Virus record (IMG/VR): IMGVR_UViG_3300010882_000010
Strand: one strand, 5' to 3'
DNA length: 64,000 nt
DNA from: a virus
Taxonomy: Duplodnaviria > Heunggongvirae > Uroviricota > Caudoviricetes
This document shows, in pieces, positions 8,092 to 56,472 of this stretch. The notes under the pieces are model-generated. The model saw only the letters and a list, made by a program, of their open reading frames with translations, ran no database searches and was not told where the DNA came from. Each line of letters opens with the position of its first letter. Positions within the stretch are counted from its first letter, which is position 1. The position numbers and the translations under genes are program-made.

Positions 8092-8316
8092 ATGAGAACA
8101 GTTACAGTAACATATGAAACAAGACAAGGAGAACCGGGTTGGGGAGATGGAAGTATGCCACTTTGTGGATTTTACATGTGGGATTCTGATGTTGTAGGAG
8201 ACGGTTGGTGCTCAATTCAAAGCCATAAAACAGGCAATGGTTCAATTGATTTCAAAAAAGATTGCGATAATTGTCATGTTTTAAGAGAAAAAATCAGAGA
8301 ACAAAATGAAGGATAA
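8092..8316 (+). CDS. Hypothetical protein.
   Basis: 74-aa ORF. Confidence 0.4.
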   Translation: MRTVTVTYETRQGEPGWGDGSMPLCGFYMWDSDVVGDGWCSIQSHKTGNGSIDFKKDCDNCHVLREKIREQNEG

Positions 8317-13051: not shown

Positions 13052-13474
13052 ATGGCAGAAATTAAAAATTACAAAAAGTTTGGTGATTTGCAAACAGGTA
13101 AGACCTACGTTTTACAATGTGATCAGCATGCAAGTTTGCATGAAATTCAAGTTTTAGAAAAAAGAAAAAATTCTCTTTGTGTTGTTTGGAATCCAAAAAC
13201 GGGTAATGCAACTTGTTGGGAAAAAGCTGATAAGGAAATTTGGGCTATTTTTGATGAGTGGGATACTTTTGTGCTTAGAACACAACCAATTGCAGTTCCA
13301 ATACCATCAAGATGTCCATATACTGGAGATTTAATACCATATCCATATTGGAATGGTGATCATTTTCCTCCTGGTTGGGAACACTGGTACACAACTTGCA
13401 GTTCTCAAACAGTACTACGAGGAGATACAGGAACCGTTTGTCAAGATGAAAATGGTAAATTAATTAAGTCCTAG
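13052..13474 (+). CDS. Hypothetical protein.
   Basis: 140-aa ORF. Confidence 0.55.
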   Translation: MAEIKNYKKFGDLQTGKTYVLQCDQHASLHEIQVLEKRKNSLCVVWNPKTGNATCWEKADKEIWAIFDEWDTFVLRTQPIAVPIPSRCPYTGDLIPYPYWNGDHFPPGWEHWYTTCSSQTVLRGDTGTVCQDENGKLIKS

Positions 13475-13524
13475 CAATAGGGCTTTTTTTCTATTAGATA
13501 GTTAGAAATCTCTTAAAAGAATCT

Positions 13525-13580: not shown

Positions 13581-13832
13581 ATGAACAGTAGAATCCCAAC
13601 TTTTCAAGATTTCATTCTTGAAAGAGAATTTTCAGATGAAGAACGTCAAAAACTTGCAGATGAAGGAAAAGCAATGAAAGATGGTAGTTTTCCAATTGAA
13701 ACAGAACAAGATTTGAAAAATGCAATTAAAGCGCACGGAAGAGCAAGTGATCCAGAAGAAGCTAAGAAGTGGATAATCAAAAGAGCAAAAGAAATGGGAA
13801 AAGCCGATATTCTCCCGGAAGATTGGCAATAA
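13581..13832 (+). CDS. Hypothetical small protein.
   Basis: 83-aa ORF about 40 nt downstream of a GGAATAAATAGTAAAAG motif copy. Confidence 0.5.
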   Translation: MNSRIPTFQDFILEREFSDEERQKLADEGKAMKDGSFPIETEQDLKNAIKAHGRASDPEEAKKWIIKRAKEMGKADILPEDWQ

Positions 13833-13835
13833 AGA

Positions 13836-14018
13836 TTGATGTGGCCACGCAAGTTCGAAGCACCAAAAGACTGTATTCTTTGTGGTAAGCCACTTGAGAT
13901 GGATTTTGAGTTTGAAGATTGGGTTTGCGAAGATTGTCAGTTAAAATTAAAATTTAAAGATCTTAAACCATATGAACAAAGTATTAACACCGAGCCAAAT
14001 GTTGGAAAAAACTCTTGA
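13836..14018 (+). CDS. Hypothetical zinc-ribbon protein.
   Basis: CILCG...CEDC motifs. Confidence 0.4.
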   Translation: MMWPRKFEAPKDCILCGKPLEMDFEFEDWVCEDCQLKLKFKDLKPYEQSINTEPNVGKNS

Positions 14019-14184
14019 TTACAGTTCACAAGCATACGAATTTAATCAGGAAGTTTTGAAATTGGGTACAAGAGATAATCTTTTTGATAAGTTCATGAAA
14101 AAGAACAAATTACCGGCGGATGATCTTTCAGATTTTATGCAGGCTGTAATTGATGATATTAAAAAGAGGTTTTATCTTTCATGA
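13972..14184 (+). CDS. Hypothetical protein.
   Basis: 70-aa ORF overlapping its neighbours. Confidence 0.4.
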   Translation: MNKVLTPSQMLEKTLDYSSQAYEFNQEVLKLGTRDNLFDKFMKKNKLPADDLSDFMQAVIDDIKKRFYLS

Positions 14185-15026
14185 AACAGTACATCCAAGA
14201 TTTTAACAATTTCTTAATAGAAGCAAAAGAACAGATAGATTTTGAAAAGTATGGTTATGATATTAGAAAATCTAGAGGTGGTATTTCTATTGATAAAAAA
14301 GTTTATGGTCATTGGACATTCATGTTACAGGTAAGTTCAAGGAAAGCAGCAGTAGAATGGATTAAAAAGGATATGGAAAAGAATGGAATAGTAATGGAGT
14401 CTTTTAGAATTGAATCGGGTTCTTCGGCAGATGTTTACATCGACAAAGGAGTTGTAGTAAAATTCACAAAAGATGAGTCAGAATTTCTTGCATGGTGTAA
14501 ACTTAGAGAAGCGGGTATTTTTCAAGTTTTAAAGAAATTTCCAGGAACTCCAAGAATTTACGAGTTGTTTTTAGATGAAACAAGAGATAAGAAGTTTATC
14601 ATTATAATGGAAGAAATTAATGAAATTCCAGATGATAAAGCAACTAAAATTGAAAAGTTCTTAATGAACAAATGGAGAACTACTTATCTTGAAAAAGTTT
14701 TATCATTTAAAGATGAGTTAACTAGGTTTAAAACTCTGGAAGAAGGTCTTACATGGGGTTTGTTAGATTTTTGTGCGAATTGGAAACAGTATTGTCAAAG
14801 TATTGGAATTAACATGAAAGAAATGGAAATTCAGAATATTGGACTAAAAAATGGTGAGTATGGATTTTTTGACATGGGAGAATCTAAAGTTTCAACCACA
14901 CTTAATGCAATGAAAAGATATTACATTAATGAACAAAGTTACTTTAGTTCAAAATTTAGAAATTTTGAAGAGAACAAATTAACCGATAAAGAATATGCCC
15001 AAAATTTGATTAATTATTACACATGA
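14181..15026 (+). CDS. Putative capsid-packaged internal protein carrying the N-terminal capsid-targeting-like sequence.
   Basis: N terminus MKQYIQDFNNFLIEAK fits the shared consensus MK(Q/R)(Y/R)I..F(E/D)(E/D)F(L/V).E.K. Confidence 0.6.
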   Translation: MKQYIQDFNNFLIEAKEQIDFEKYGYDIRKSRGGISIDKKVYGHWTFMLQVSSRKAAVEWIKKDMEKNGIVMESFRIESGSSADVYIDKGVVVKFTKDESEFLAWCKLREAGIFQVLKKFPGTPRIYELFLDETRDKKFIIIMEEINEIPDDKATKIEKFLMNKWRTTYLEKVLSFKDELTRFKTLEEGLTWGLLDFCANWKQYCQSIGINMKEMEIQNIGLKNGEYGFFDMGESKVSTTLNAMKRYYINEQSYFSSKFRNFEENKLTDKEYAQNLINYYT

Positions 15027-16069
15027 AAAGAATACTAAAGATTGAAAAAGTAAAACAATGCAAATTTTGTAAAGAAGATTTTGTGCCCAAAAATCCAGCA
15101 CAGATTTATTGTTCAGATGAATGCAAAAAAGAATCAAAATTCAAAGTAAAAAATTGTGAATTTTGTAGAAAAGAGTTTAAAACTAAAAGAAAGACAACAA
15201 GATTTTGTTCGGCATATTGTCGTTCTATGGTAGTAAACACAACAGAAGAATATCGAGAAATTATGTCAAATAGTCTTAAAAGCAGTCAAAAAGTTAAAGA
15301 GGGTAGAGTTAGACAAGCTGAAACAATGAAAGAAGTTCATCGACGTCCTGGATATAAAGAAAATCAATCATTAAAAATTTCTAAAGCAAAAAATTGTCCG
15401 GAATCAAAAGAAAAAACTTCAAAAAGTTCAAAAGAAGTTTGGCAAAGAGACGATTTTAAAGAAAAAATGATAATAATACGAAATGAACAATGGACTCCCG
15501 AATTAAGAAAAGCGAGGGGGATTTTAACTAAAAATAGTTGGCAAAATTTAGATTATCTTGAAAAAATGGAAAAAAGAAACAAAGAAAATTTAGAAAGATT
15601 TAAAAATGATGAATGGAGAAATTATTTTTGTCAACAAGTTTCAAAAGCATGTAATACACAAGAGAAAAAAGATTTACAATCAATAATTGCTACAAGTTTA
15701 TGGCAAATTCCAGAATATGTTGAAAAAGTAATGAATTCAAGTAGTCAATTTAAAGATTTTGTGATGCCATCTGGTAAAATGGTAAAATTACAAGGATATG
15801 AGCCTAAAGTTTTAACTGAATTATTAAAAACTTATCCAGAAGAAGATATCTTAACACAAAATGAAATTATCAGATATTTAGGACCAATTCTTTACATTGG
15901 AATAGATGGTAAAGAACACTCATACAGACCAGATTTTTACATCAAATCAGAAAACAAAATTGTAGAAGTTAAAGGAAAAAGATGGTATATCATGCATGAA
16001 GAAACATGCAAATTAAAAGAAAAAGCTTGTCTAAAAATGGGATTAAATTACGAAATTATCATATTATGA
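15023..16069 (+). CDS. Homing endonuclease-like protein: N-terminal zinc ribbon, NUMOD3-like repeats, and a C-terminal PD-(D/E)xK nuclease domain.
   Basis: CKFCKEDF...CSDEC; several S.ETK..EVH-type NUMOD-like repeats; C-terminal PDFYI...IVEVK (PD...E-x-K). Paralogous to 18624..19376. Confidence 0.65.
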   Translation: MKRILKIEKVKQCKFCKEDFVPKNPAQIYCSDECKKESKFKVKNCEFCRKEFKTKRKTTRFCSAYCRSMVVNTTEEYREIMSNSLKSSQKVKEGRVRQAETMKEVHRRPGYKENQSLKISKAKNCPESKEKTSKSSKEVWQRDDFKEKMIIIRNEQWTPELRKARGILTKNSWQNLDYLEKMEKRNKENLERFKNDEWRNYFCQQVSKACNTQEKKDLQSIIATSLWQIPEYVEKVMNSSSQFKDFVMPSGKMVKLQGYEPKVLTELLKTYPEEDILTQNEIIRYLGPILYIGIDGKEHSYRPDFYIKSENKIVEVKGKRWYIMHEETCKLKEKACLKMGLNYEIIIL

Positions 16070-17244
16070 AACAATTTATTGCAAATTTTAACATGTTTTT
16101 AAATGAGAGAAAAGCACAAGAAATTCCTCATAAAAAAAATCAGTGGGTTGAAATTAATCCAGCTGATTATGAAGATTTAAAAGATGATTTTTTTGAATTA
16201 GTTAAAATTGCATATGAGTCGATAGGAGGTAATCTTCAAGTTAAAAAACCGGCCGATTTATTTGATCAAGGAATTTCAGTTTTTAAAGCTGTGGATGTAG
16301 ATGGTGATAAGGATTTTGATGTAATGAAAGGATACAAAGAAACTCCATATGGGAAAAAATCAATTTTAATGGGAAGAGATGAATCTAAAGAAGCAAAAAA
16401 AAGTTATCTCGATAAGATGGGTGAAGAACTTAACAAGAAAGGATACTATGTGGAAGTTTCTCACAAACTTGCTGAAATCTTGATGAACAAGTATCATGTT
16501 CATGTAGTTACTAATCCAAAAGCAATAGAGACTGTTTTAGGAAAGCATATTGAGTTTCATGGTGAACATCCTACTGATAAGAATGCAACAGGAAATGGTT
16601 GGTATACAAGGAAGATTGGAGATAATAATGCAGTTAAAATCTTAGTAGGTAGACCATTAGTAAAGGAAAGTGTGGTTGAAGGTCTTAAAGCAATGAGTTA
16701 TGAAGTACAACCAAAACTTTTGATTTTACATGGTTACGAATCGAGTCATAATCCACCAAGAGTAGAAATTCTTAGAGATTTGGGTTTTAAAGTTTTTGCA
16801 GAAAAAATTGATTATGATTCAAGAAGTAGTGCAATTTTTAACAAGTACTTGAACTTGATTAGAGAGGAAAAAATTGATCTTATTGTAGGGTCTTCAATGG
16901 GTGGATATTTAGGATTTTACCTTGCAAAAGCAACAGGAGTTCCAGCAATAGTTTTTAATCCCGCACTAATTGAAACATCCAGCGGAGCGCCGAAACCTAT
17001 TGTAAATGTGAATGGTAGTCAAAAGCCCAAAATTATTGTAGTTACAGGATTAGAAGATGATGTAGTAAATTCTGAAAATTTGATAGAATGGTTAAAAGAG
17101 AATACAGGAAGTAATGTAAAGATAGAAAAAGAGAGAATAGGACATAGAATACCAGACAAACTTTACATCGACTACATTTTAGGTGAAGGTTTGTTAGAAG
17201 AGTACAAAGGAAAAAAAGACAAAAAATTAACACACTATTGGTAA
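16066..17244 (+). CDS. Alpha/beta-hydrolase (esterase/lipase-like) with the N-terminal capsid-targeting-like sequence.
   Basis: N terminus MKQFIANFNMFLNERK. The nucleophile elbow GSSMGG (GxSxG) lies in IDLIVGSSMGGYLGFYLAKATG. The ATG overlaps the upstream TGA (ATGA). Confidence 0.65.
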   Translation: MKQFIANFNMFLNERKAQEIPHKKNQWVEINPADYEDLKDDFFELVKIAYESIGGNLQVKKPADLFDQGISVFKAVDVDGDKDFDVMKGYKETPYGKKSILMGRDESKEAKKSYLDKMGEELNKKGYYVEVSHKLAEILMNKYHVHVVTNPKAIETVLGKHIEFHGEHPTDKNATGNGWYTRKIGDNNAVKILVGRPLVKESVVEGLKAMSYEVQPKLLILHGYESSHNPPRVEILRDLGFKVFAEKIDYDSRSSAIFNKYLNLIREEKIDLIVGSSMGGYLGFYLAKATGVPAIVFNPALIETSSGAPKPIVNVNGSQKPKIIVVTGLEDDVVNSENLIEWLKENTGSNVKIEKERIGHRIPDKLYIDYILGEGLLEEYKGKKDKKLTHYW

Positions 17245-17658
17245 ATGGAAAAAAGAATTGGAAATTTTGAAGAGTTTCTTAATGAAATGAAGTATGCTGA
17301 TCAAGGAGAAATTAAAATGCAGACTTTGGTAAATAAAGATATCTCTTGGGATGGATATCTTAGTACTTTCTTTAGAGATGCAATTTTGAAGTATTTTTTG
17401 GGACTTGATCCGAGAAAAGAATGGTATTCAAGATTAGACAAGAAGTATGCTAATTTGGATGTTGAATGGACACAAGATAATAATGTAATTAAGACTTTGG
17501 ATAGAAGAACTACTTTAGATAGTGCTGCTAATAGAAGAGGCGGTTATGTTACAGTTTATCAAATGAGACCTAATTATGTTGGGATTTTAGTAGAAGATAA
17601 TGATAGTATGGGATATCAAATTCTTTACGGATTTGATACTAATGATGTACTAAAATAA
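17245..17658 (+). CDS. Putative packaged internal protein (CTS-like N terminus).
   Basis: N terminus MEKRIGNFEEFLNEMK. Confidence 0.55.
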   Translation: MEKRIGNFEEFLNEMKYADQGEIKMQTLVNKDISWDGYLSTFFRDAILKYFLGLDPRKEWYSRLDKKYANLDVEWTQDNNVIKTLDRRTTLDSAANRRGGYVTVYQMRPNYVGILVEDNDSMGYQILYGFDTNDVLK

Positions 17659-17672
17659 AAAGAAGACAAGAT

Positions 17673-18131
17673 ATGAAACAAAGAATAGGAACTTTAGAAG
17701 ATTTCATTACAGAAAGTAAGAAAGATTTTGCAATTCGTTATCAGATGTTTAAGGGTAAAGACGGTGAAGTTGTAACAAAAGAGAAGTTTTTTCCATCTAA
17801 AGAAAAGTTAGATGCTTTTGTTGATAAAATAGTTGATGATAATAATTTTAAAGAAATTTTAGCTTTTTCAGATGGAGTTGAAGATACTTTTAATGAAAGT
17901 GCTGGATCACAAACAATAACAATGAGTGCTTTTGCAGAAGACTATTCAGAAAAAGCTTGGAAATTTTTGTTTGGTAGAAATCAGTTTGAGTTTGTTCCTA
18001 AATCTCAAGCTATTTTTGTTGAATCAGCAAAGAAGGGTGAAGAGTTTGATAATGGGGGTTCAAATTATTTTGAAATTCCATTATGGCTTTTCAAAAAATT
18101 AAAAGGAACAGAATTTTACGGAACAATTTAA
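17673..18131 (+). CDS. Putative packaged internal protein (CTS-like N terminus).
   Basis: N terminus MKQRIGTLEDFITESK. Confidence 0.55.
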   Translation: MKQRIGTLEDFITESKKDFAIRYQMFKGKDGEVVTKEKFFPSKEKLDAFVDKIVDDNNFKEILAFSDGVEDTFNESAGSQTITMSAFAEDYSEKAWKFLFGRNQFEFVPKSQAIFVESAKKGEEFDNGGSNYFEIPLWLFKKLKGTEFYGTI

Positions 18132-18147
18132 AAAAAATGATAAGAAC

Positions 18148-18624
18148 ATGGAAAAAAGAATTGGAACTTTTGATAATTTTCTAACAGAAGGAAAATTGAA
18201 TGAAGGTGTAATATCAAACTTTTTTAAGAATCCAAAAAATAGTAGTAAAACAGTTTTCTTTATTACAGATGATGAACACAAACCTGGATATTACAAAATT
18301 GCAAGTGCTACTAAAGTAACTTGGGATAAACCTGGTGAATGGGAAAATGAGGCAGAAGGTTTAACATACCAACAAGCAATAAAAGAAGCCACAAGTGGTA
18401 AGTTTGAATCTAAATGGGGAATGGAATACATCGGATCAATTGAAAATCCTAAAACGGGTATGTCTATTAAAGAAGGTGAAGATTTGGGAGAATTATTGGT
18501 AAAAATAGTAGGTAAAGTAGCTGGTGAAGTTAAGAAAGTTTTAGATAAAGGAGCAAAGGATTTAGAACTTGAAACTAAGGATATTATTGATGTTGTTTTC
18601 AAATTGATAAAATCAAAACTTTAA
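18148..18624 (+). CDS. Putative packaged internal protein (CTS-like N terminus).
   Basis: N terminus MEKRIGTFDNFLTEGK. Confidence 0.55.
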   Translation: MEKRIGTFDNFLTEGKLNEGVISNFFKNPKNSSKTVFFITDDEHKPGYYKIASATKVTWDKPGEWENEAEGLTYQQAIKEATSGKFESKWGMEYIGSIENPKTGMSIKEGEDLGELLVKIVGKVAGEVKKVLDKGAKDLELETKDIIDVVFKLIKSKL

Positions 18625-19376
18625 TGGAAAAACCAAAAAAGTTAATTGTTCTTGTAACTAAGATTTGTGAATATTGTAATACTGAATTTAAAACTTCTAA
18701 TAAAGATAAAAAATTTTGTACGAGAATTTGTCAAAATCAATCTTATTGGACAGAAAAACGCAGAAAAGAAAGATCAATTAAAAGTAAAGAAATTTGGAAT
18801 CGTCCTAATTTTTTAGAGAAAATGTCAGAAATTTCAAGTTTTAATCAAAACAAGATTGAATACAAAGAAAAACGTTCTAAAATTGCTAAAGAAATTAATA
18901 GTAGACCGGAAGTAATAGAACAACATCGAAATAATACTATAAAATTATGGCAACAAGAAGAATACAGAACAAAAAATTTAAATAGTAGAATAGAATTTTG
19001 GAAAGATAAAGAAAAAAGTGAAGAATATATTAAATCTTGTTTAAAGTACAAAGATTTTATTATGCCATCTGGAAAAATAGTTAAGATACAAGGATATGAA
19101 CCACAATTTTTAACAGAACTCTTAAAAACTTATCAAGAAGATGATATTATAATAAGAAAAAGAATTCATTATCAATTTAAAGAAAAAGAACATAATTATT
19201 TTCCTGATTTTTTTATTAAATCAAAAAATTGGATTATTGAAGTTAAAAGTGAATGGACTTTTAAACAACATGAAGAGCAAAATTTAGCAAAAAGAAAAGC
19301 ATGTTTAAAACAAGGATATAATTTTAGTTTTGTAATTTTTAACAAAAGAGGTACAATATGGAGATACTTAGAATAA
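18624..19376 (+). CDS. Homing endonuclease-like protein (zinc ribbon, NUMOD3-like repeats, PD-(D/E)xK domain); paralogue of 15023..16069.
   Basis: CEYCNTEF...CTRIC; C terminus DFIMPSGKIVKIQGYEPQFLTELLKTY...PDFFIKSKNWIIEVK aligns with the other copy. Confidence 0.65.
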   Translation: MEKPKKLIVLVTKICEYCNTEFKTSNKDKKFCTRICQNQSYWTEKRRKERSIKSKEIWNRPNFLEKMSEISSFNQNKIEYKEKRSKIAKEINSRPEVIEQHRNNTIKLWQQEEYRTKNLNSRIEFWKDKEKSEEYIKSCLKYKDFIMPSGKIVKIQGYEPQFLTELLKTYQEDDIIIRKRIHYQFKEKEHNYFPDFFIKSKNWIIEVKSEWTFKQHEEQNLAKRKACLKQGYNFSFVIFNKRGTIWRYLE

Positions 19377-20137
19377 ATTCAAAAGGAACATTAGTGAAAA
19401 AGTTACAAGAAATTCTTAATTTATTGGGATTTAAGTTAATAATTGATGGACAATTTGGAAAAGGAACAGAAAATGCAGTAAAAAGTTTTCAGTCCAAAAA
19501 CAAAATTTTAGCAGATGGAATTTGTGGTATGAAAACATGGGAATTACTTAATAAAGCAGTTATGGCTTTGAAACCAATTGTAGAAACAGTTAAAACTGTT
19601 AAGGTTCAATTTGATGCAGGTCTTGAAGGTCATGATATGATTGCAAAAGATTTGTTAGATTTACTTTTAGTTGCGGGTAAGGATTCAAAAAATGATATTG
19701 TTTTTGTTACCTCTTTACATCGTCCGCCAATTAGACAAGCAAATGCCATGTACAATAATCTTGCAAATGGAATAGTAGTTAGTTATGCTGAGCCAGGAAA
19801 AATAGTAACAAAATTAATCCAAGATGAGATTAAAAAGAAAACTAATCCGTCAACTATTGTAAAAATGGCAGAAGCTAAGATAATTGAATTAGCAGGTCAA
19901 GGTAAGTTGGTTTCTCGTCATTGTCAAACTGAAGCAGCATACAGAAAACTTAATGTGATTGATGTTACTAAAACAAGGATGAAAAATTACATCGAGTTTG
20001 TTAATAGTCTTTTGAAATCAAAGAAAATTTCAAGGATTATTACACCATTTGGAACTTTAGCAAATTACAATAATGATAAGAGAATTTTAGTTGACAAGAA
20101 TGAAAGTGCAGTGCATATTGAATATCAAGTGAGCTAA
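19358..20137 (+). CDS. Protein with an N-terminal peptidoglycan-binding domain (PG_binding_1-like); candidate cell-wall hydrolase or endolysin.
   Basis: LVKKLQEILNLLGFKLIIDGQFGKGTENAVKSFQSKNKILADGICGMKTWELL matches the PG_binding_1 pattern. The C-terminal ~170 aa are unassigned. Confidence 0.5.
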   Translation: MEILRINSKGTLVKKLQEILNLLGFKLIIDGQFGKGTENAVKSFQSKNKILADGICGMKTWELLNKAVMALKPIVETVKTVKVQFDAGLEGHDMIAKDLLDLLLVAGKDSKNDIVFVTSLHRPPIRQANAMYNNLANGIVVSYAEPGKIVTKLIQDEIKKKTNPSTIVKMAEAKIIELAGQGKLVSRHCQTEAAYRKLNVIDVTKTRMKNYIEFVNSLLKSKKISRIITPFGTLANYNNDKRILVDKNESAVHIEYQVS

Positions 20138-20144
20138 AATAATT

Positions 20145-20161
20145 GGAATAAATAGTAAAAG
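20145..20161 (+). promoter_or_regulatory. Copy 3 of the GGAATAAATAGTAAAAG motif.
   Basis: Exact copy, 12 nt upstream of the ATG at 20174. Confidence 0.5.
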
Positions 20162-20173
20162 GTAAATAGAGAA

Positions 20174-20917
20174 ATGTTAATTTTTGAAATTCAAGGAAAG
20201 AAAGGTTTTAGTGGAGTTGTTAAAATTCAGATTGATGATGAAGGTGTAATTCAAGGAAGTGTACATACAAAGTTTGATCCAAAGGTGAAAGAATTTAGCG
20301 GTACTACTAAGAATTTACCAGGGATGTTTGAATGGTTTTTAGAAAACATGCAATCTGATGAATTTAGTGCAAATCAAAGTTATCATGCTGTTAAAAGGTT
20401 GGTAGATAAAATGATGGATGATGTTATTTTTTATGCCAATAGAAAAGGAAGTGAAATCTACACTAAACAAAGAAAAGACATTTTAATAAAAGAGAATACC
20501 AATATGGAAAAAAGAATCGGAACACTTGCAGATTTTATAAATGAGTCTATAGAATTAGGAAAGCATATCGTTTTTGATTATGAAAAAGAACGATACATCA
20601 AAGAAAATTATCCAAAATTAATCCAACTTTTGCGAAAAATAATAGGTAAAGATTTTGTTTTGGTTCAAGATAGTACAACGCACTATATTGGTGATATTAT
20701 AGAATCACCTGTAGAATATGGAACAGAAGGAGATTTTGTTTATACTGAAGAAGGTGGTAAAAAAGTTTCGGTACTACCATACTTTTGGGGTAAATCTCCA
20801 ATTTATGCAGCAGTTGTAATTAAAGATGAGTTTTATGGTTTTGCGGTTCCTACTAAGAATTTGAAAGCAACATACAAAGTACAGATTCTTAGAGATATTA
20901 CCAATTTTGAAAATTAA
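20174..20917 (+). CDS. Two-part ORF: an N-terminal ~110 aa of unknown function, then a CTS-like motif at the internal Met (nt 20504) followed by ~138 aa.
   Basis: Internal NMEKRIGTLADFINESIEL matches the CTS consensus. No stop separates the two parts. A GGAATAAATAGTAAAAG copy lies at 20145-20161. Confidence 0.5.
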   Translation: MLIFEIQGKKGFSGVVKIQIDDEGVIQGSVHTKFDPKVKEFSGTTKNLPGMFEWFLENMQSDEFSANQSYHAVKRLVDKMMDDVIFYANRKGSEIYTKQRKDILIKENTNMEKRIGTLADFINESIELGKHIVFDYEKERYIKENYPKLIQLLRKIIGKDFVLVQDSTTHYIGDIIESPVEYGTEGDFVYTEEGGKKVSVLPYFWGKSPIYAAVVIKDEFYGFAVPTKNLKATYKVQILRDITNFEN

Positions 20918-20932
20918 AAAGAGATAATAATA

Positions 20933-22588
20933 ATGAAAAATTTTATCCCAAATTTTGAGAGTTTTTTAAATGAGTCTAAAGTAGCAGATGCTATTTTGGA
21001 TTTAATTATCAAAGTACATCAAAATCCAAATGATACAAAATCCTTACATCAGCTTGCTGAAATGTTAGGTCTTAATCCACAAGAAAAGAAAGAGTTAGAA
21101 AAGGTTAAGAAAATTATCAAGAATGCAGAAGATGCTTATGCAGCTTTTGATTTGCTTTTAGATTCAAGTAATGAGTCTGTTGTAGTTGAAGGTAATCTTT
21201 ACACGGGTGCAACTCCAATTAGAAATTTAGAACAGTTTTCTCATAAAGAGAATAATTTCATTTTAGACTATTTTCCAAGTGGAGATATCTTATGGTTAAT
21301 TTGGGGTATGAGAGGATTTAATGATATCTTTAAAGCTAAAGCAAAATGGAGAGTTTTGAGAACATATCAAGATGATCAGTACAGAATTATTGCATACAAA
21401 ACTAAATTCCGTGGAGATATTGTTTTAGGTGCTATTCTTAAATCAGATTTAGATGCAGGTAATGAAGAACTTACTGAATTTTTGATGGGAAAAAGAGTAT
21501 TACAAGAAAAATTACAAGGACCAGGAAAAGATACAGAATGGACTCAAATGAAGTTCGATGATGTTGTAGACAAACTTGAAGATATGGTTGAAGCTGCAGA
21601 AAAAACAGGAAATTATGATGCTATTGCACAATTTTGTGATTTGAAAGTAAAAGAAGTTAAAAAACTTTTTTTTGGTAATTATTCAGAAGGTGAAATAGTA
21701 CAAAAGATAATTGATATGATGGAGTCTGTTAAAACTCCCGAAGGTAAGAAAGTTAATGAAGTAAGAACTTGGTCAACAAATTATGGTAAAGTTACTTATT
21801 TTGAAGATTATAATGAGTTTCTAGATTTCTTTTCAATAAAGAGAAATATCACAAGAAAACCAGAATTTTCGGAAGTTGCTTTTTTGAATGATAGAAAAGG
21901 TAATACTAACAGATTAGTAAGAAATTGGTTTGGTGTAGAAGATCCTCATGGAGACTTTTTGATGGTAACAAATTTTCCAATTAAAAATGAAGTTTCATTT
22001 TATGATGTGGGCGGAAATTATATTGAAACAGATTTAGTTAAGAAGTTTAAACTCGATGATTATGCTAAAAATTATGAAAAAGGACTTTTTGAGTCTAAGA
22101 AAATTGATGAAAAACTTTCAATAGATACTAAAGTAGAGTTGGATTACTTAATTCAAAAAGCTTTAACAGAAGAAAGTTCAAAAGATGCTTATGCTGGTAT
22201 TGCTTTTATTATGAGAATGAAAGTTGATAAAGTTGCAGAAATTTTTCAGAAACATGGAAACAAAGAAAAAGCAATTTGGGATGAAATTATGGGAATTTTG
22301 AAAGAATCTGTTTTGAATGAAGATTTTTCTACGGATTGGGTAAAACCGGGTATTTTGATGCCATTAGGCGGAAAAACAGTAAAAGTAATTACAATAGATG
22401 ATTTTCAGAATGGAATAGTTTGGAGAATTAAAGTAAAGGACATGAATACTGGTAATTTCTATAAAGCAGTATGGAATGGTCAGATGTTTATCATGGGTGA
22501 ACAAATTGAAGCACCAATTTGCGATGAACCGGAAACTTTAGAAGATCCTGAAATAGAGTACAATGCACCTCTTCAATGGAGAGCTTAA
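20933..22588 (+). CDS. Large putative packaged internal protein (CTS-like N terminus), 551 aa.
   Basis: N terminus MKNFIPNFESFLNESK. Confidence 0.6.
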   Translation: MKNFIPNFESFLNESKVADAILDLIIKVHQNPNDTKSLHQLAEMLGLNPQEKKELEKVKKIIKNAEDAYAAFDLLLDSSNESVVVEGNLYTGATPIRNLEQFSHKENNFILDYFPSGDILWLIWGMRGFNDIFKAKAKWRVLRTYQDDQYRIIAYKTKFRGDIVLGAILKSDLDAGNEELTEFLMGKRVLQEKLQGPGKDTEWTQMKFDDVVDKLEDMVEAAEKTGNYDAIAQFCDLKVKEVKKLFFGNYSEGEIVQKIIDMMESVKTPEGKKVNEVRTWSTNYGKVTYFEDYNEFLDFFSIKRNITRKPEFSEVAFLNDRKGNTNRLVRNWFGVEDPHGDFLMVTNFPIKNEVSFYDVGGNYIETDLVKKFKLDDYAKNYEKGLFESKKIDEKLSIDTKVELDYLIQKALTEESSKDAYAGIAFIMRMKVDKVAEIFQKHGNKEKAIWDEIMGILKESVLNEDFSTDWVKPGILMPLGGKTVKVITIDDFQNGIVWRIKVKDMNTGNFYKAVWNGQMFIMGEQIEAPICDEPETLEDPEIEYNAPLQWRA

Positions 22589-22604
22589 AATTTAGAAAAT
22601 AATA

Positions 22605-23405
22605 ATGAAGCAATACATCGCAAAATTTGATGAGTTTGTTAGTGAAGCAAAAATAGTAGAGATGCCATTTAGAATGAGTTTGGATTCTTCAAAATCGGAT
22701 CCTGAATTTGGTGGAGCACAGATGTACATGACACCGGAAGCAGAGAATTTGGTTCGTAAGTACTTAGGTAATGATTTCTATGGTCTTAGATTTGATGGAG
22801 AATACAGACACAAGAATTTTAAGTACTTGCAGAAAAAAGTTAACTCTTGGAAAAAAGTTACAGAAAAGTATGCTAAAGTAGTCGATAAAGCAGATGAAGG
22901 AAAACCATTACAATACGTAGTTTTTCAATCTCCTGATAGACAAGATTTTATTATTGAAGTTTCATGGAAAGATTTTAATGCGGATGAAAGCACAAGAATA
23001 GTATTAGCATATTGGGCGAGTAAAGAATTTTTACTCGAAAATGAAGATAATGAAAGTATTACTTTGATGAGACTTAATGAAAAGGAAGATGTTGATTACA
23101 AAAAAGAGTTTGCAAATGTTCATGTAGAATTAAAGAAATTTTTTAATAATCCAAAGAATGCTGAAAAGATAGCTTGGTTTGTAACTAATGATATTGAAGC
23201 ACAATCAAAAGGAAAGTATTGGTTGCTTTATGCAAGTAAAGAGACCTATGATAATCCACAAGTTGGAACTCCAAATGCTTGGCAATATTATGGAGGTAAT
23301 ACTGAAATGACAAAAGCAGAAGCCATTAAAAGAGGTAAAAAGTACGTAACCGAATTTAGAAATGCAGGTGAGCAAGATGAATTCATTGGCGTAATTGAAG
23401 CATAA
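22605..23405 (+). CDS. Putative packaged internal protein (CTS-like N terminus).
   Basis: N terminus MKQYIAKFDEFVSEAK. Confidence 0.6.
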   Translation: MKQYIAKFDEFVSEAKIVEMPFRMSLDSSKSDPEFGGAQMYMTPEAENLVRKYLGNDFYGLRFDGEYRHKNFKYLQKKVNSWKKVTEKYAKVVDKADEGKPLQYVVFQSPDRQDFIIEVSWKDFNADESTRIVLAYWASKEFLLENEDNESITLMRLNEKEDVDYKKEFANVHVELKKFFNNPKNAEKIAWFVTNDIEAQSKGKYWLLYASKETYDNPQVGTPNAWQYYGGNTEMTKAEAIKRGKKYVTEFRNAGEQDEFIGVIEA

Positions 23406-23417
23406 AATTAAGATAGA

Positions 23418-26226
23418 AATGAAAAGATACATCCCATTATTTGAAGATTTTGTAGTAGAAAAGGTTGAATATCCAATTCCAGATTATAATGCAAAACAAT
23501 TAAAATCAACTTTTGAATTATCTTCAAAAGAATCTGAGGATATTTTTCAGTTTTTAAAAACTGATGCTTACAATATCTTAACACAAGATAAAACAGGTAG
23601 AAATCAATGGAAAATTATTGCCAATGAGATACACCAAAAAATTATCAAAGGTAAAGGAAAAGTAGATGGTATTGAAGGAAAATTAGAATTTTACACCTTA
23701 GGAAATGGTAATAGAGTAGTTGCAATTGATGATGATGGAATTGTTTTTATTATTCCAAATTGGACACTTTCTCTTTATGAAGCAAGAGGGCTTTCAGGAT
23801 TACATGCTAAAGGTGAAAAAGTTTTTACAGTAAGAGGAAACCTCAAAGATGCTATTAAGAAGATTAACTTTGGTAAGTACGTGGAGATTTTGTTTAGAGA
23901 TGGAGAGAAAGTAAGAGGAAAATTGGTAGATACTAATTTAGGATTGTACAGTATTACAATTGAAGATGATAAGAATACTTTTGAGTTTAATATCGACAAT
24001 ATTCAGGATATTAGAGTAATACGAGGGATGAATGATTACTCTTCAGATTTTGCAAATGAGTCAGAAGAACAGATTGATGAAGCAAAGAAAGAGTATTGGA
24101 TGCTAAAAGGTAAGCATACTTCAAAAAGAGGATATTCAGAAACAGAATACTTTGTTTATCTCTATCCATTTGATTCTAAAAAAGCAGCAAGTTGGAGTCG
24201 AGGACCAGCAGAAAGAAGGACAGATTTAACACAGACTTTTAACACAAAACAAGAATTAGAAGATGAAGGAAAGGATTTAGAAAAAGATGGTTATATCGTA
24301 AATTGGATTACTGAGTCAGAACAAATTAATGAAGGTGATGATATAGTAATGAAAAGATATTGGCTTGCTACAGAAGAAGATAAAGAGGAATTTTTGAAAT
24401 TTTTGAGAAAACTAAAGAAAGCAGAGAAAAAACCTAATTTCATATCATTTCTTTTTAGTGATATGGGTAAAGCAATGTACCAAGTAACAAAAGGAAAGGA
24501 TGGAAAAGAGGTATCAAGATACAATCAATGGGAAGTAGATGTTACGGCTTTTGATCCAAGTGTAATTCAAAAGGTTGAAAAATTTGGAAAGCTTTTAGAG
24601 TCAGAATCTGAATTTGAATCTTCAGAATTAATTAATGAAATTCAGATGTCTATTATTCCATTCAATAAAATTAGAACAGGAATGACTGTTTACACAGATG
24701 ATGGAGATGTTGTAGGTAAAATAGTTGATTTAGGTTCTGGTTGGAAAGGTCTTGCACATGCTATCAAAGTTCACAATACTTTTCAAGATAATGTGCCCGA
24801 TGAAATGTTAAATCCAAGTTCAGCTAATACTTTCAAATGGGTAATAGTAGATACTGGTATGGACAGAGAAGCATGGTTGTATGATAGTAAAAAATATCAA
24901 AGTGTGCAGGTTTTTGAATGTGAAGAAATTACAGAACAACTTAATGAAGCAGGTGAACAATGTTACTACAAAATTTTAGTTAATACTGTTTTGAAACAAA
25001 AGCATACTGGAAATGATTGGAAAGAATTGGTAAGAGGAACACATCAAATCATGGATATTTGCAAAAAGATTGGAATTATTACTAATGTAGAGGTTAATGG
25101 ACCTAATGTTAAATTGGTTTTAATTAAATCTGGTAAAGTAAACAATACTAGGTTGTATGATGAAATTTCGGAGAGATTCTGGAAAATTTGGGAAGATGAT
25201 AATTCACTTTTTCAAATTTCACAAAACTATGCTACAATAGAATTGAAAATGAAAGAGATAAAATCAATTGATGAAAGCAGAGCAGATACATATGAAGAGT
25301 TAATTGACAAATTAGATAATGAAGCGCACAATTTAATGGGTGTTGTAACAGGATGGACAGATGACGAAAAGATTTACAGTGCTTTTAATAGTGAGTTTGA
25401 TATGAAACATGCTATTAAAACTCTTGAAAAATGGGGATTTAAAAAAGGTGATATTATAATTCACAAGAAAGAGAAAAATCTGAGTCCAAGTTTTGACAAA
25501 ACTTTTCCATTTGTAATTAGTCTTGCTTTGTACCTTGATGAGAATTTGCAATTACAAGAAGCAATTAAAACAGTTCCAACACAATCAACAGAAGTGCATA
25601 AAGCTTATGCTGGTGGACAAAAGATTAAAGTTCATGAAGTAGTAGGTTTGACGGCTTATGGTCCGGATGGAAAAATTGGTGATATTATGCAAGTAGGTCA
25701 AGGAGTTAAAGATCTTAAAAAATTCAGAGCTTTACCTGGAATAGTAGACAAAACACCAGAAGGATTTAATGAAGATACCGTAATTGTACAAATTAAGAAT
25801 CATTATACTAAGGATATTGAACTTTGGATTTATTACACACCAGAACTCGATGATACTAGAAATTCTGTTTTAGTTTGGGAATCGGTTCAAAATAGTGGTG
25901 AACAATTAGATGAAGCACTTAATTACAAAAGAAAACAACCCGGATATGCAAGATTTCATCCGAAAAATCAAGGTAAAATAGAAGCTAAAATTACATCAAT
26001 AGACCAACTTAATAGAAAAGATGTCTACATGATAGCACTTAAACGTAATGATATCTTAGAATGGACAGATGATTGGAAACTACAAAAAGAATGGGATAAT
26101 GGAGAGGGGATGTATATGTACTTGTTTAAAACGACTAATGGCTATCTTTTTAAAGATACTTTAGAAATTGATTTAATAGGTTTAGAGTTAATGGTAAAAG
26201 ATAAAGAAATTGCAATTCAAAAATAG
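23418..26226 (+). CDS. Very large putative packaged internal or ejected protein (~935 aa) with a CTS-like N terminus.
   Basis: Likely start MKRYIPLFEDFVVEK at 23418; the ORF track starts at an upstream ATG (23395). Confidence 0.6.
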
Positions 26227-26253
26227 TAAAACAAACATAAAATACAGTTAATA

Positions 26254-26925
26254 ATGAAAAGAATGATAGAAAGCTTTAATGAGTTTGTTGATAAACAGAC
26301 AGTTAATGAAAAAGATACAAGCGCAGTACAATATTCTAAGCCATTTCATTTGATGAAAATTCGTGATAATGTTTTTGATCCCGTTGGTAATAAGATTGGG
26401 ATTGTTTTTGATTTTGGTAGAGGTGAAAAAGAATTAGATCAAACTGTTAAGAGATTTGGTCTTATTGATGAAATTCCAAAAGAAAAGAAAGTTGGTAATT
26501 TTCCATGGGTTGCTATTGATTATGGTGGTGCAGACGATAAAAAAGTTTTTGCATATGATAGAAATCGAGATATGGAATTTAGAGTTTTTGAGTCAGAACA
26601 ACTTAATGAAAATTTTTCAATTGGTGTAGGTGAAGTAAAATTGGGTACTTTGGAAGAATTTGTGAGATTTGTGAATTTTGGTACAAAGCATATCATGAAA
26701 TCAGAAATTAAAAGATGGTTTGAGTCATCAATGGGATTTAAAAATAGTCAAGAATCTGTGGATCTTTATGAAGGATTTAAAAATGAAACACTTGCTTTTA
26801 GAGGTTATTGGGCAGATCCAAAGATTAACAAAATGTTTAATAGAGAAGAGTTAGTAGAAATAGAATATCAACTTGGAAAAGATTTGAAAGGAAAACCAAG
26901 AGTGATTTACACCTATATTGAATAA
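26254..26925 (+). CDS. Putative packaged internal protein (CTS-like N terminus).
   Basis: N terminus MKRMIESFNEFVDKQ. Confidence 0.55.
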   Translation: MKRMIESFNEFVDKQTVNEKDTSAVQYSKPFHLMKIRDNVFDPVGNKIGIVFDFGRGEKELDQTVKRFGLIDEIPKEKKVGNFPWVAIDYGGADDKKVFAYDRNRDMEFRVFESEQLNENFSIGVGEVKLGTLEEFVRFVNFGTKHIMKSEIKRWFESSMGFKNSQESVDLYEGFKNETLAFRGYWADPKINKMFNREELVEIEYQLGKDLKGKPRVIYTYIE

Positions 26926-26960
26926 TTGAAGTAGGATGTTTGATGGATTGAGTTACTGAC

Positions 26961-27051
26961 AATTGTTAGTAACTTTTTTCTTTTTAAAGATGTTAGTAAA
27001 GATTTTTTCATTATTTTTGCTTTAGATTAAGAAAAATTAAAATTCAAGAAA
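26961..27051 (+). promoter_or_regulatory. Promoter element copy B.
   Basis: aattgttagtaacttttttc ... cattatttttg (TAtTTTTG at 27012-27019) upstream of the ATG at 27052. Confidence 0.55.
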
Positions 27052-30580: not shown

Positions 30581-31144
30581 ATGTTACAAAGTACAATTTT
30601 CTTTTGGCTTGCAATAGCCATTTCAACAATTTTCGTATTCCAATTTTTACTATCATTATTGGGAGCCGATTCAGATCATAGTGTAGAATTAGATTCTCCA
30701 GGAGGATTTGCACATGATGCTTTTTCATTTAAGGGTGCTATCCATTTTATCTTAGGATTTTCTTGGTTCATGTATCTAATTGACGTTTACACTTTAGCCA
30801 GCTATGGAATGGGGATTGGTGTAGGACTTGTTTTTGTCTTCGTACTCTTCTTCTTTTACAAAGGGGTCTATTCCTTGAGAAATGAGATTCCGAAAGAATC
30901 TGGACAAGATTTGGTAGGTAGAATTGCAACCATCTACAGTGCTTTAGAGAATGGAGATTATCTTGTTACAGTAGAAATTAATGGTGCAGGAAAACAAATC
31001 CAAGTTACACCAGATCCAGGAATTGTAGAAAAATTAAAAACCGGTTCAATGGTACAAATTGGATCCTATATGGGTGGAGTTTACTATATCATAGATTCAA
31101 TGTGGGGAGTGAATGCTAAAAATGAAATTAAAGAACAAAATTAA
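30581..31144 (+). CDS. NfeD-like membrane protein (YuaF/YqiJ-type partner of SPFH proteins).
   Basis: Three hydrophobic helices followed by a soluble beta-rich C-terminal domain. Sits immediately upstream of the flotillin gene, as in yuaF-floT and yqiJ-yqiK operons. Confidence 0.6.
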   Translation: MLQSTIFFWLAIAISTIFVFQFLLSLLGADSDHSVELDSPGGFAHDAFSFKGAIHFILGFSWFMYLIDVYTLASYGMGIGVGLVFVFVLFFFYKGVYSLRNEIPKESGQDLVGRIATIYSALENGDYLVTVEINGAGKQIQVTPDPGIVEKLKTGSMVQIGSYMGGVYYIIDSMWGVNAKNEIKEQN

Positions 31145-31175: not shown

Positions 31176-32852
31176 ATGGAAAACGTTTCAAGTTTGTTCA
31201 GCAATGGTGCTGTGTACGGATGGATGATTGGAATTCTCGCCGTACTAATGTTTATCACGTTTATCGCTATTGTAAAGCGGTACAAAAAATGTCCATCTAA
31301 CAAGGTGCTTGTTGTGTATGGAAAAACAAGAGGTAAAAAGAGTGCAAAAATGTACCACGGTGGTGCGGCGTTCATTTGGCCTATCATTCAATCTTTCGAA
31401 TTTTTGGACTTAGAGCCGATGAATGTTAAGTGTGACTTGGCAGATGTTCTTTCTGGTCAAATGATTCGTGTATCCGTTCCGATTAATCTTACTGTCGGTA
31501 TTTCAACAGATGAGACTATTATGCAAAATGCAGCAGAACGTCTTTTAGGTATGAAACAACCGGACATCGAGAAGTTAATTAAGGAAGTATCTCATGGTCA
31601 AATGCGTTTGGTAATTGCCAGTATGCAAATTGAAGACATGAATTCTGACAGAGACAAATTCTTAAGTGAAGTTAAAACTAAAGTAGATCTTGAATTAAAC
31701 AAACTCGGTTTATCTCTTATCAATATCAACATGTCAGACATCCAAGACAATGCAGAATATCTTTTGAATTTGTCTCGTGAAGCTGAATCTAAAGCACGTA
31801 ATGAAGCTCTTGCAAGTATTGAAGAACAAAACAAAATTGGTGCTATTAAAATTGCTGCTCAGGTTAGAGAAAAAGAAATTAAAACATCTGAGCAAAACAA
31901 AGATAAAGAAATTCAAGTAGCTGAAATTAAGAAAGAAGAAGCTACAAAAGTTTCTGAGGCAGATAAATTGAAAGCTATTGCAGTTGCTGAAAACAAATCC
32001 ATTGAGGATTCAAAAGTAGCAGCAGCAGAAGCACAAGCTGTTGAAAATGTTACACAAGCTAATACCGAAAGGGACTCTAAAGTTGCAGAATACAATGCGC
32101 AATTACAAAAACGTCAAGCAAAAGCAAATCAAGATGGACAGTTAGCAGAAAACTTGGCACAAGAAGAAATTGCAAAATCTGGTGCTAAATTGAATGTTAC
32201 AAAAGCTGAAGCAAAACAAAAATCGGGTGAAGCATTTGAAATAGCAGAAGCCGGTATCAAACAAAAGAAAGAAGAAGCAGCTAAAGCAGTTGAAGAAGCA
32301 AGAGCAAGAAAAGTAGAGGCACAATTGCAAGCAGATAATATTGTACCAGCAGAACAGGCTAAGAAAGAAAAAGTAATTCAAGCCGCAGCAATTGGAGATG
32401 CAGCCAAAACTCAAGCAGAAGGTGAAGGTGAAGCAGAATTAATTCGTGCTAAAAAAGCTGCAGAAGCACTTAGACTTAAAGGTCAAGCAGAAGGTGATGC
32501 AAAGAAAGCTGTATTACTTGCAGAAGCAGAAGGTGTTAAAGCTAAAGCTCTTGCAGAAGCAGAAGGTTTTAGTGCTATGATGGAAGCTGCCCAACAAAAT
32601 TCTGAAATCGCAGTTCAGTACAAAATGATTGAACAATGGAAAGAAATTGCAGGTGAACAAGTTAAAGCATTTGAAAACATCAAATTAGGAGAAATTACTG
32701 TTTTTGATGGTGGAAATGCAACAGGTAATTTCTTAAACAATATTGTGAAAACAGTAGCACCGGCTTTGAACATCATGGATCAATTGCCAATAGGTGAAAC
32801 ATTCAAAGGAATCTTAAAACCTGGTACAAAAACCGAAGTTAAGAAAGACTAA
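31176..32852 (+). CDS. Flotillin-like SPFH/band-7 protein (FloT/YqiK-like).
   Basis: N-terminal TM helix, an SPFH-like region, and a long coiled coil with Ala/Glu-rich EA repeats (...KAKALAEAEGFSAMMEAAQQN) typical of flotillins. Confidence 0.8.
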   Translation: MENVSSLFSNGAVYGWMIGILAVLMFITFIAIVKRYKKCPSNKVLVVYGKTRGKKSAKMYHGGAAFIWPIIQSFEFLDLEPMNVKCDLADVLSGQMIRVSVPINLTVGISTDETIMQNAAERLLGMKQPDIEKLIKEVSHGQMRLVIASMQIEDMNSDRDKFLSEVKTKVDLELNKLGLSLININMSDIQDNAEYLLNLSREAESKARNEALASIEEQNKIGAIKIAAQVREKEIKTSEQNKDKEIQVAEIKKEEATKVSEADKLKAIAVAENKSIEDSKVAAAEAQAVENVTQANTERDSKVAEYNAQLQKRQAKANQDGQLAENLAQEEIAKSGAKLNVTKAEAKQKSGEAFEIAEAGIKQKKEEAAKAVEEARARKVEAQLQADNIVPAEQAKKEKVIQAAAIGDAAKTQAEGEGEAELIRAKKAAEALRLKGQAEGDAKKAVLLAEAEGVKAKALAEAEGFSAMMEAAQQNSEIAVQYKMIEQWKEIAGEQVKAFENIKLGEITVFDGGNATGNFLNNIVKTVAPALNIMDQLPIGETFKGILKPGTKTEVKKD

Positions 32853-36046: not shown

Positions 36047-36667
36047 ATGAAAGTTTGGTTGCAAGTAACTTCAGGAAGAGGACCAGTAGAATGTTGTAGA
36101 GTTGTTGTAGAAGTATGTTCAGAGATAATTTGTGAAGGAAGTGAACAAGGATTAGAGGTTGAATTTTTAGCGGGTGAATCAGGTCCGGTAAAGAGAACTT
36201 GGTATTCTTCAATAATAACAGTAGAAGGAGATGAAAAACAGGTAGAAGATTTTGTTAAATCATGGGAGGGTACAGTACTTTGGATAACAAACAGTCCATA
36301 CCGATTACATCACAAAAGAAAGAATTGGTTTGTTGGTGTGAAAAGATTGGAAGTTGCAAAGGTTCAAGATTTTAAGGAAAATGAAGTTGAGTTTACTACA
36401 ACAAGATCTTCAGGACCTGGTGGACAACATGTGAACAAAACAGAATCTTGTGTAGTTGCAATACACTTACCAACAGGAATTAAAGTTACATCAAGCAATA
36501 GAAGTTCGCAATTTCAAAACAAGCAGATTGCAATAGAATTACTTAAAGCTAAATTAGCAACTTTAGAAGCAGAAAAAGAACTTAAAGTAGAACAAACTAA
36601 TTGGCAAAATCATAATGAATTGGAAAGAGGAAATCCAGTTAGAACTTTTAAAAGAAGATTAACATGA
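36047..36667 (+). CDS. prfH: PrfH-like peptidyl-tRNA hydrolase / release factor H (a GGQ-domain protein lacking RF domain 1).
   Basis: TTRSSGPGGQHVNKTESCVVAIHLPTGIKVTSSNRSSQFQNKQIAIELLKAKL is the class-I release-factor GGQ domain. At 206 aa with the motifs GPVECC, SPYRLHHKRKNWFVG and C-terminal ERGNPVRTF, the layout fits PrfH, not RF1/RF2 or ArfB. Confidence 0.8.
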   Translation: MKVWLQVTSGRGPVECCRVVVEVCSEIICEGSEQGLEVEFLAGESGPVKRTWYSSIITVEGDEKQVEDFVKSWEGTVLWITNSPYRLHHKRKNWFVGVKRLEVAKVQDFKENEVEFTTTRSSGPGGQHVNKTESCVVAIHLPTGIKVTSSNRSSQFQNKQIAIELLKAKLATLEAEKELKVEQTNWQNHNELERGNPVRTFKRRLT

Positions 36668-56471: not shown

Positions 56472-56472
56472 A

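Follow-up and report, generated by a model that had tools for sequence, protein, structure and literature searches.

A shared N-terminal leader resembling the T4 capsid-targeting sequence marks a gene cassette in an uncultured jumbo phage

The internal proteins IPI, IPII and IPIII of phage T4 carry a short N-terminal capsid-targeting sequence (CTS; Mullaney and Black, 1996, as summarized in the reviews PMC9026906 and PMC3012670). Mutagenesis of the IPIII tag, MKTYQEFIAE, assigned residues 4 and 7 to targeting and residues 8 and 10 to processing (PMC9026906), and T4 gp23 is cleaved after the Glu of FGSFLTE, before an Ala. In the T-even phages, as far as these secondary accounts relate, hypervariable internal-protein loci combine shared leaders with diverse proteins (Repoila et al., 1994, via PMC9026906 and PMC12373910; PMC3012670), and the injected T4 proteins Ip1-3 inhibit type IV restriction enzymes (GmrSD; PMC12373910). 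Here we describe a family of N-terminal leaders, 13-14 residues long, in a 64,000-nt stretch of the viral record IMGVR_UViG_3300010882_000010 (hereafter the window), where most copies form a cassette at 13581-26925. We propose that this common N-terminus is a T4-type capsid-targeting propeptide, in an expanded variant of the T4 system, a reading to which we assign a probability of roughly 0.68.

Two other systems are relevant for comparison. T4 Alt, an ADP-ribosyltransferase, is a large enzyme loaded into the head via a cleavable N-terminal propeptide that ends in Glu, so an enzyme travelling as cargo, as proposed here for the esterase-like protein encoded at 16066 (genes are named here by their first position), has a precedent; its propeptide, MELITELFDE, is however off the profile of the leader (-1.2 bits). 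In phiKZ-like giant phages (SPN3US, phiKZ) a gp21-related prohead protease, cutting after Glu, frees many head-internal proteins, which enter the host (PMC5694885, PMC10052503). The propeptides in that group are mostly longer than 100 residues and individual, not one short common tag (PMC5694885), whereas the leader described here is uniform, 13-14 residues long, with L/I/V at P3 (counted back from the Glu at P1), and lacks the long-propeptide feature. In the open-access literature we found no report of leader cassettes outside the T-even phages.

The leader shares with the T4 CTS its nature as a short putative N-terminal propeptide on otherwise unrelated proteins, the MK start, the aromatic/hydrophobic spacing of IPIII Y4 and F7, an L/I/V two residues before the Glu as in I8 and E10, and often a small residue after the Glu; 10-residue versions occur in this genome and its clade. 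In contrast to the T4 tag, it usually runs to 13-14 residues, P10 is an additional conserved I/L, P2 is often N, and there are about 15 copies per genome here versus 3-4 in T4, on acidic cargos of up to 935 aa. Like the T-even loci, the gene groups are accessory clusters known only by their leader, variable between relatives and situated beside homing endonucleases or a tRNA array. Unlike them, they belong to a distant lineage of low-GC jumbo and huge phages, are far larger, and in some relatives make up one fifth of the genes in the portal neighborhood. What is new with respect to the T-even phages is therefore the longer leader, the more numerous, larger and acidic cargos, and the distant phage lineage.

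The leader has the form M-(K/E/N)-x-x-I-x-x-(F/L)-x-x-F-(L/I/V)-x-E and stands at the N-termini of ten open reading frames (ORFs) starting between 13581 and 23419. When the strict pattern M...I..[FL]..[FW][ILV].[ED] was run on the six-frame translation of the window, it matched 10 times, always on the plus strand and at the ATG opening an ORF; residue frequencies predict 0.05 matches, and none of 300 residue shuffles gave more than 1. A degenerate DNA pattern of the leader matched 6 times in the window versus 0 in 100 dinucleotide shuffles. Counting variants, the family comprises 11 genes in 13581-26925, three in 52718-54232 and one about 4 kb past the window end, some 15 in total; the roughly 90 remaining genes of the window have no leader. 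A first-pass annotation had listed at least ten genes with a common N-terminal peptide in the main region and two or three in the second, and had staked the idea on the alignment statistics of the motif; both the numbers and the statistics bear it out. Its statement that every copy ends in F(L/I/V)xE is too strong: the (L/I/V)-x-E ending is present in 10 of the 11 genes of the main cassette and absent from 26254. Among the ten canonical copies, position 8 is F or L and position 11 is F without exception (10/10).

Leaders of this genome use different codons at 36% of their identical residues (Ile as ATC, ATT or ATA; Leu as TTA, CTT or CTA; Glu as GAA or GAG), mean nucleotide identity over the 42-nt leader region is 65%, and the DNA 5' of the leader ATGs is not conserved. 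These synonymous differences and the unconserved upstream DNA indicate selection on the peptide. Conservation could instead reflect an RNA-level translation-initiation signal, such as a downstream box or a structure-free start in an AT-rich genome, given that the leader begins at the ATG and that A-rich sequence with AAAATTAAGA-like words lies ahead of several leader starts. However, what is conserved in the columns is the amino acid, with codons varying synonymously, the upstream word is only mildly enriched and occurs window-wide, and some 90 other genes do without the leader, which makes an RNA signal scarcely credible. The AAAATTAAGA word was also considered as a cassette-specific signal and rejected on account of this window-wide distribution; a sigma-70 promoter scan gave a count near the shuffle expectation.

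The leaders form a family under peptide-level selection with a sharp boundary of conservation at the Glu. Across 188 distinct related leaders, the conserved residues are L/I at P10, F/Y (also L) at P7, F (also Y/W) at P4, L/V/I at P3, N at P2 and E at P1. The expression used for collecting them constrains some of these columns, P7 and P4 among them; P10 (L/I) and P2 (N) were unconstrained and are conserved as well. Information content falls from 4.3 bits at the P1 Glu to 0.45 bits by P3', and this collapse right after the Glu is as expected for a junction or predicted cleavage site. The best-conserved positions, 8, 11, 12 and 14, have the same 3-1-2 spacing and the same chemistry as IPIII positions 4, 7, 8 and 10, with Val at P3 extending the T4 (L/I)-x-E consensus. 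Bridging forms of the T4 length of 10 residues are MKTLDQFLNE (before K) in this genome and MKKYSEFISE (before S) in the clade. Comparable sites recur in the head proteins of the clade: the capsid proteins have a near-invariant H-x-L-x-E around residue 43, and the proteases begin with L-(V/I)-L-E followed by R. One gp21-type protease (L111:11656-13557, IMG/VR contig 3300027733_000028) has a long scaffold-like region fused to it; within that region a leader-like segment, KMHFFNFLAE followed by SKR, suggests that the leader may mimic a scaffold segment.

Outside this genome, the leader DNA pattern was found at 61 IMG/VR loci, about 35 of them at true ORF N-termini in unrelated viral contigs. Further leader genes, not targeted by the search, adjoin those matches and form runs of 5-10 consecutive genes, with leaders such as MKNYINTFEGFLNE, MKHILTFKNFLNE and MKNRIPTLTEFINE. 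The peptide pattern is kept across phages of 25-48% GC and across cargos without detectable similarity, which requires purifying selection on the peptide. This bears on the possibility that the leader is an evolutionary by-product without targeting function, either a remnant of serial duplication or a 5' recombination anchor for cargo swapping. Paralogy among some cargos, hypervariable cassettes with homing endonucleases, and the reshuffling of leader-cargo pairings between phages would all suit such an origin. Yet within this genome the leader DNA, with 65% identity and differing codons at a third of the conserved residues, is too divergent to serve as a recombination anchor, and together with the purifying selection this renders a by-product very improbable.

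In other phages the leader family is tightly linked to T4-type modules of head and virion genes. Some runs lie between a Peptidase_S77 gene and a Gp23 gene, both Pfam-confirmed; some are located upstream of genes for a gp20 portal, a gp23 capsid protein and a fusion of gp21 protease with scaffold, all on the same 207-kb contig; others come after a gp18-like sheath and a gp19-like tube. The capsid clade corresponds to Pfam Gp23, of which a capsid-protein profile search recovered 3524 proteins, and takes in the Lak phages, other huge phages and Bacteroidota jumbo phages. In 80 loci centered on T4-type portals (Portal_T4), 208 of 1008 genes start with the core motif, compared to 4 of 256 genes in T4, three of which encode IPII, IPIII and gp61.1, and 2 of 302 in Tenacibaculum phage PTm1. 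The latter was dropped as a cultured model, having a head module of the same type and no leader family; no cultured relative with the leader family was found.

The T4 gene 61.1 (NC_000866 18966-19130) encodes a 54-aa hypothetical protein that starts with MKTFKEFIKE, thus ending in I-K-E, and is identical to IPI in its first seven residues. Judging from these residues, gp61.1 may be an unrecognized CTS-bearing protein.

The closest relative of the cassette is found on a 425-kb contig with eight MxxRIPxFxxFxxE leader genes, one DUF7487 endonuclease gene and a 65%-identical copy of the gene 13581 cargo; this contig was absent among the matches listed in a capsid-motif DNA scan. Its leader genes are interleaved with gp5-, gp13-, gp25- and gp6-like genes. 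That these are baseplate and neck genes, not head genes, and that the leader genes of one group follow the tail tube gene, is what would be anticipated if the leader were an uncleaved tag for a non-capsid partner, such as a phage chaperone, a membrane or secretion route, another virion part like the baseplate, or a degradation signal; cleavage is moreover a prediction, and the T4 tag was not retrieved statistically. The leader has, however, no signal-peptide-like hydrophobic stretch. Its invariant Glu, the L/I/V two residues before it and the collapse of conservation behind it fit a protease site, the clade's capsid, protease and scaffold proteins contain (L/I/V)-x-E as well, and other leader runs occupy the interval between the S77 protease and the capsid gene. 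A non-capsid tag is thus, in our estimation, quite improbable.

The main cassette was originally taken to start at 14181; the first leader gene is in fact at 13581. Two homing endonucleases, thought to flank the cassette, lie inside it and carry no leader. The features are as follows:

13466-13485, plus strand: terminator-like hairpin with a T-run behind it, within the 106-nt gap before the first leader gene
13581-13832, plus strand: leader gene 1, 83 aa, MNSRIPTFQDFILE followed by REF; strict pattern match
14181-15026, plus strand: leader gene 2, 281 aa, MKQYIQDFNNFLIE followed by AK; strict pattern match; orphan cargo in library searches
15023-16069, plus strand: DUF7487 (PF24308) homing-endonuclease-like gene without leader, inserted in the cassette
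16066-17244, plus strand: leader gene 3, 392 aa, MKQFIANFNMFLNE followed by RK; N-terminal domain plus a YqiA/UPF0227-type alpha/beta hydrolase
17245-17658, plus strand: leader gene 4, 137 aa, MEKRIGNFEEFLNE followed by MK; strict pattern and leader hidden Markov model (HMM)
17673-18131, plus strand: leader gene 5, 152 aa, MKQRIGTLEDFITE followed by SK; strict pattern and leader HMM
18148-18624, plus strand: leader gene 6, 158 aa, MEKRIGTFDNFLTE followed by GK; strict pattern match
18624-19376, plus strand: second DUF7487 homing-endonuclease-like gene, without leader; domain match
19358-20137, plus strand: PG_binding_1 protein without leader, mid-cassette; domain match
20504-20917, plus strand: leader gene 7, 137 aa from the ATG at 20504, MEKRIGTLADFINE followed by SI; strict pattern match
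20933-22588, plus strand: leader gene 8, 551 aa, MKNFIPNFESFLNE followed by SK; orphan cargo with net charge -18
22605-23405, plus strand: leader gene 9, 266 aa, MKQYIAKFDEFVSE followed by AK; strict pattern match
23419-26226, plus strand: leader gene 10, 935 aa, MKRYIPLFEDFVVE followed by KV; strict pattern match; nearly orphan
26254-26925, plus strand: leader gene 11, 223 aa, variant leader MKRMIESFNEFVDKQTVNE followed by K; 9.5 bits with the leader HMM
26950-26975, plus strand: terminator-like hairpin of 11 pairs with a T-run, 25 nt past the last cassette gene

The ATG at 20504 is in frame with, and inside, a called 247-aa ORF (20174-20917), in which the leader begins at residue 111; either the start of this ORF was mis-called, or an upstream gene has become fused to the leader gene through loss of a stop codon. 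The two DUF7487 genes are paralogs (E 1e-29), and a homolog of the first is found inside the related cassette of L018/L027. The hairpin at 13466 is the probable upstream boundary of the cassette transcription unit, with the position of the two hairpins around the cassette no more than suggestive, since such sites are as frequent in the region as by chance or in shuffled sequence. The PG_binding_1 protein is possibly a peptidoglycan hydrolase; its gene amid the leader cassette resembles the T4 arrangement in which the lysozyme gene e lies beside ipIII.

Searches of the cargos against Pfam, PHROGs, NCBIfam and PDB sequences gave almost no matches, so nearly all are orphans; the exceptions are the hydrolase domain of 16066 and the 83-aa protein of 13581. 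No ADP-ribosyltransferase was detected among the cargos in the domain-library searches, and, in contrast to the T-even situation, no cargo of this phage resembles Ip1-3. The members singled out earlier, an alpha/beta hydrolase and proteins of 551 and about 935 aa, were recovered at 16066, 20933 and 23419. The same first-pass annotation described the cargos as unrelated; this is correct for most of them, although the 18148 cargo is similar to the C-terminus of 22605 (E 7e-6), and residues 396-491 of 23419 are similar to the 26254 cargo (E 1e-6), a paralogous internal domain. The 935-aa protein gave no match in tblastn, and among 1.84 billion representative proteins only three weak homologs, all to its last ~95 residues; one of these has a clear leader (P0134: MKTHIPTFNEFISE followed by A) and the other two have leader-like variants. 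For the 281-aa protein of 14181, which by the look of its sequence might be kinase-like, a single-sequence AF2 model was unusable (pLDDT 36).

Homologs of the hydrolase gene 16066 are present in the huge phages LR745206.1 and LR756504.1. In LR745206.1, a 634-kb genome, the homolog (locus L158, 576-578 kb) is split into two ORFs, the first of which starts with MKHLKAFEEYEF; neighboring genes start with MKYLKTFES and MKDLKHIKLFEAFE. These starts point to a related leader dialect in huge phages.

The 13581 cargo shares homology with the C-terminal ~70-90 aa of actinophage capsid maturation proteases (45-61% identity), for example the C-terminus of Gordonia phage ChisanaKitsune gp30, encoded directly before the capsid gene of that phage. 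What is the tail of a protease there is a free-standing 83-aa leader protein here. An 88-aa ortholog, also with a leader, is encoded 2 kb downstream of a Gp23 capsid gene. For the 13581 protein, AF2 gives a three-helix domain of moderate confidence (pLDDT 70.5) that has no fold match in the PDB.

Having a maturation-protease domain as cargo is one of the observations in favor of a different role for the leader proteins, in which the leader does target the prohead and the proteins are core, scaffold or decoration accessories, like T4 gp67, gp68 and gp22, that are degraded, expelled or retained in the head. The leader genes of relatives fill the portal-protease-capsid slots where T4 has gp67, gp68 and gp22, the scaffold region contains an internal leader-like segment, and the cargos are acidic, as are T4 scaffold proteins. 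Nevertheless, the cargos are extremely varied, differ from one relative to the next, are for the most part orphans and have homing endonucleases scattered among them, the signature of accessory and not of essential genes. An esterase-type enzyme is among them, as are proteins of 551 and 935 aa, and PTm1 builds the same type of head without the leader family. We therefore consider it unlikely that the family as a whole consists of assembly components, though individual leader proteins may act in assembly and not as effectors.

The original proposal for these proteins, a T4-like capsid-targeting propeptide with a prohead-protease site at its end, is supported by the occurrence of the leader in Portal_T4/Peptidase_S77/Gp23 modules, by the leader-bearing 13581 ortholog near a Gp23 gene, by the match to the IPIII positions and by the collapse of conservation after the Glu. 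Several observations weigh against it. In this genome the cassette lies outside the head module, amid auxiliary genes, and neither a prohead protease nor a scaffold or capsid gene was found in the window or its +/-10 kb flanks; the search for a protease that the first-pass annotation had called for was negative over this interval, but it did reveal Peptidase_S77 in other phages with the same leader family. A T4-type protease does not predict leaders either, as PTm1 has the module without the family. In 26254 and 52718 there is no Glu at the aligned position, the motif being displaced by 4-5 residues; the variant leader of 26254 has FVDK and then VNE five residues later. The resemblance to the T4 tag holds for the spacing of four positions and the MK start and does not extend to profile scores: an HMM of the window leaders gives T4 IPIII 6.3 bits, IPI 1.5 and Alt -1.2, where the best random T4 matches score 6.3-13.1 bits, a noise level at which the peptide is too short for significance. 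With the profile at this level, homology with the T4 tag rests on the four positions and the MK start.

The nature of the cargos is a further point on this side. T4 internal proteins are small and basic. Here, the predicted mature cargos span 69-921 aa and range from neutral to acidic (pI 5.0-7.8, with net charges as low as -26). Such sizes and pI values argue against classical internal proteins and not against CTS-type loading, for which T4 Alt, with 682 aa, offers a precedent.

Since the leader looks and sits like the T4 tag, the leader proteins are probably packaged and perhaps injected. In the mechanism that we envisage, the hydrophobic positions of the leader (I5, F/L8, F11 and L/I/V12) would bind the prohead scaffold core during head assembly, and any protein fused behind the leader would thereby be enclosed in the prohead. 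A prohead protease of the gp21 family (Peptidase_S77) would cut after the Glu of (L/I/V)-x-E, freeing the mature cargo inside the head; at infection the cargo could then exit together with the DNA. We infer core binding, cleavage and the presence of a protease in this genome; ejection and any effector role of the cargos are speculative. On this model the cassette at 13581-26925, the trio at 52718-54232 and the gene past the window would constitute a variable arsenal of about 15 packaged proteins, including the esterase-like hydrolase and the 551-aa and 935-aa orphans.

A broader proposal, for which we see somewhat less than an even chance, is that jumbo and huge phages with T4-type heads made the tag into a general cargo-loading system. 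The ~15 mostly orphan, acidic proteins of this phage (up to 935 aa), and a fifth of the genes around the head module in relatives, would then be injected as a large, fast-evolving host-takeover or anti-defense arsenal that has gone unrecognized in uncultured phages. All three characterized internal proteins of T4 disarm restriction enzymes (PMC12373910), and proteins delivered with the phage DNA act ahead of any phage gene expression. With a recognizable leader, the packaged proteome of uncultured jumbo phages could be read from sequence and hundreds of orphan proteins could be put forward as candidate early effectors; new tags would also become available for the loading of foreign proteins into capsids. 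The T4 tag appears not to be peculiar to coliphages, but to be widespread, and much expanded, among phages with Peptidase_S77 head maturation.

The second cluster and the outlying copy are made up as follows:

52718-53203, plus strand: weak variant leader, 161 aa, MKQRVETKLGDYINSINE followed by AF; 4.9 bits, membership uncertain
53208-53888, plus strand: short-form leader gene, 226 aa, MKRVQTLDEFVTNE followed by T; 10.2 bits
53903-54232, plus strand: short-form leader gene, 109 aa, MKRLETLEEFVTE followed by AK; 14.2 bits, directly upstream of the tRNA array
Window-equivalent position 68165, about 4 kb past the window end: the T4-length leader MKTLDQFLNE followed by K

The array downstream, at 54868-58659, holds 11 tRNA genes, with a DUF559/VSR-like endonuclease gene inside it (55653-56471). 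T4 ipI likewise adjoins the T4 tRNA genes.

The source of the window is an uncultured jumbo phage with a genome of ~219 kb. The window is AT-rich (~31% GC), with nearly all genes on the plus strand, and its proteins are also present on a 160-kb ENA contig, on Logan contigs and on one 219,030-bp JGI contig. No near-identical DNA and no close relative were found among GenBank phages; the best matches, which are weak, are to Bacteroidota phages (Cellulophaga, Tenacibaculum and Prevotella Lak phages) and uncultured huge phages. Tail-fiber genes lie just upstream of the window, and the leader cassette follows some 12 kb downstream of them, among auxiliary genes.

Several other genes of this phage deserve mention. 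Two TnpB-like genes (OrfB_IS605 plus a Cas12f1-like TNB domain) are located at 5946-7301 and 60168-61406, the second being 38% identical to one beside the head module of the huge phage LR756500.1. The RF-1 domain (peptide-chain release factor) of a 206-aa protein (36047-36667), a nearby CCA-adding enzyme (40156-41430) and an RNA ligase gene past the window end suggest a toolkit for translation and tRNA repair. The phage encodes a sigma-70 family factor with regions 2 and 4 (46409-47116) that is not a T4 gp55-type late sigma. The thymidylate synthase at 62130-63740 has an insert of ~270 residues, and the matching protein of PTm1 is annotated as an HNH endonuclease there; the dihydrofolate reductase at 8306-9400 is fused to an additional C-terminal domain of ~200 aa. 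Finally, a 558-aa SPFH/flotillin protein (31176-32852) is preceded by a membrane protein (30581-31144), and a second Band_7 gene is found beyond the window (locus L002, from 19910).

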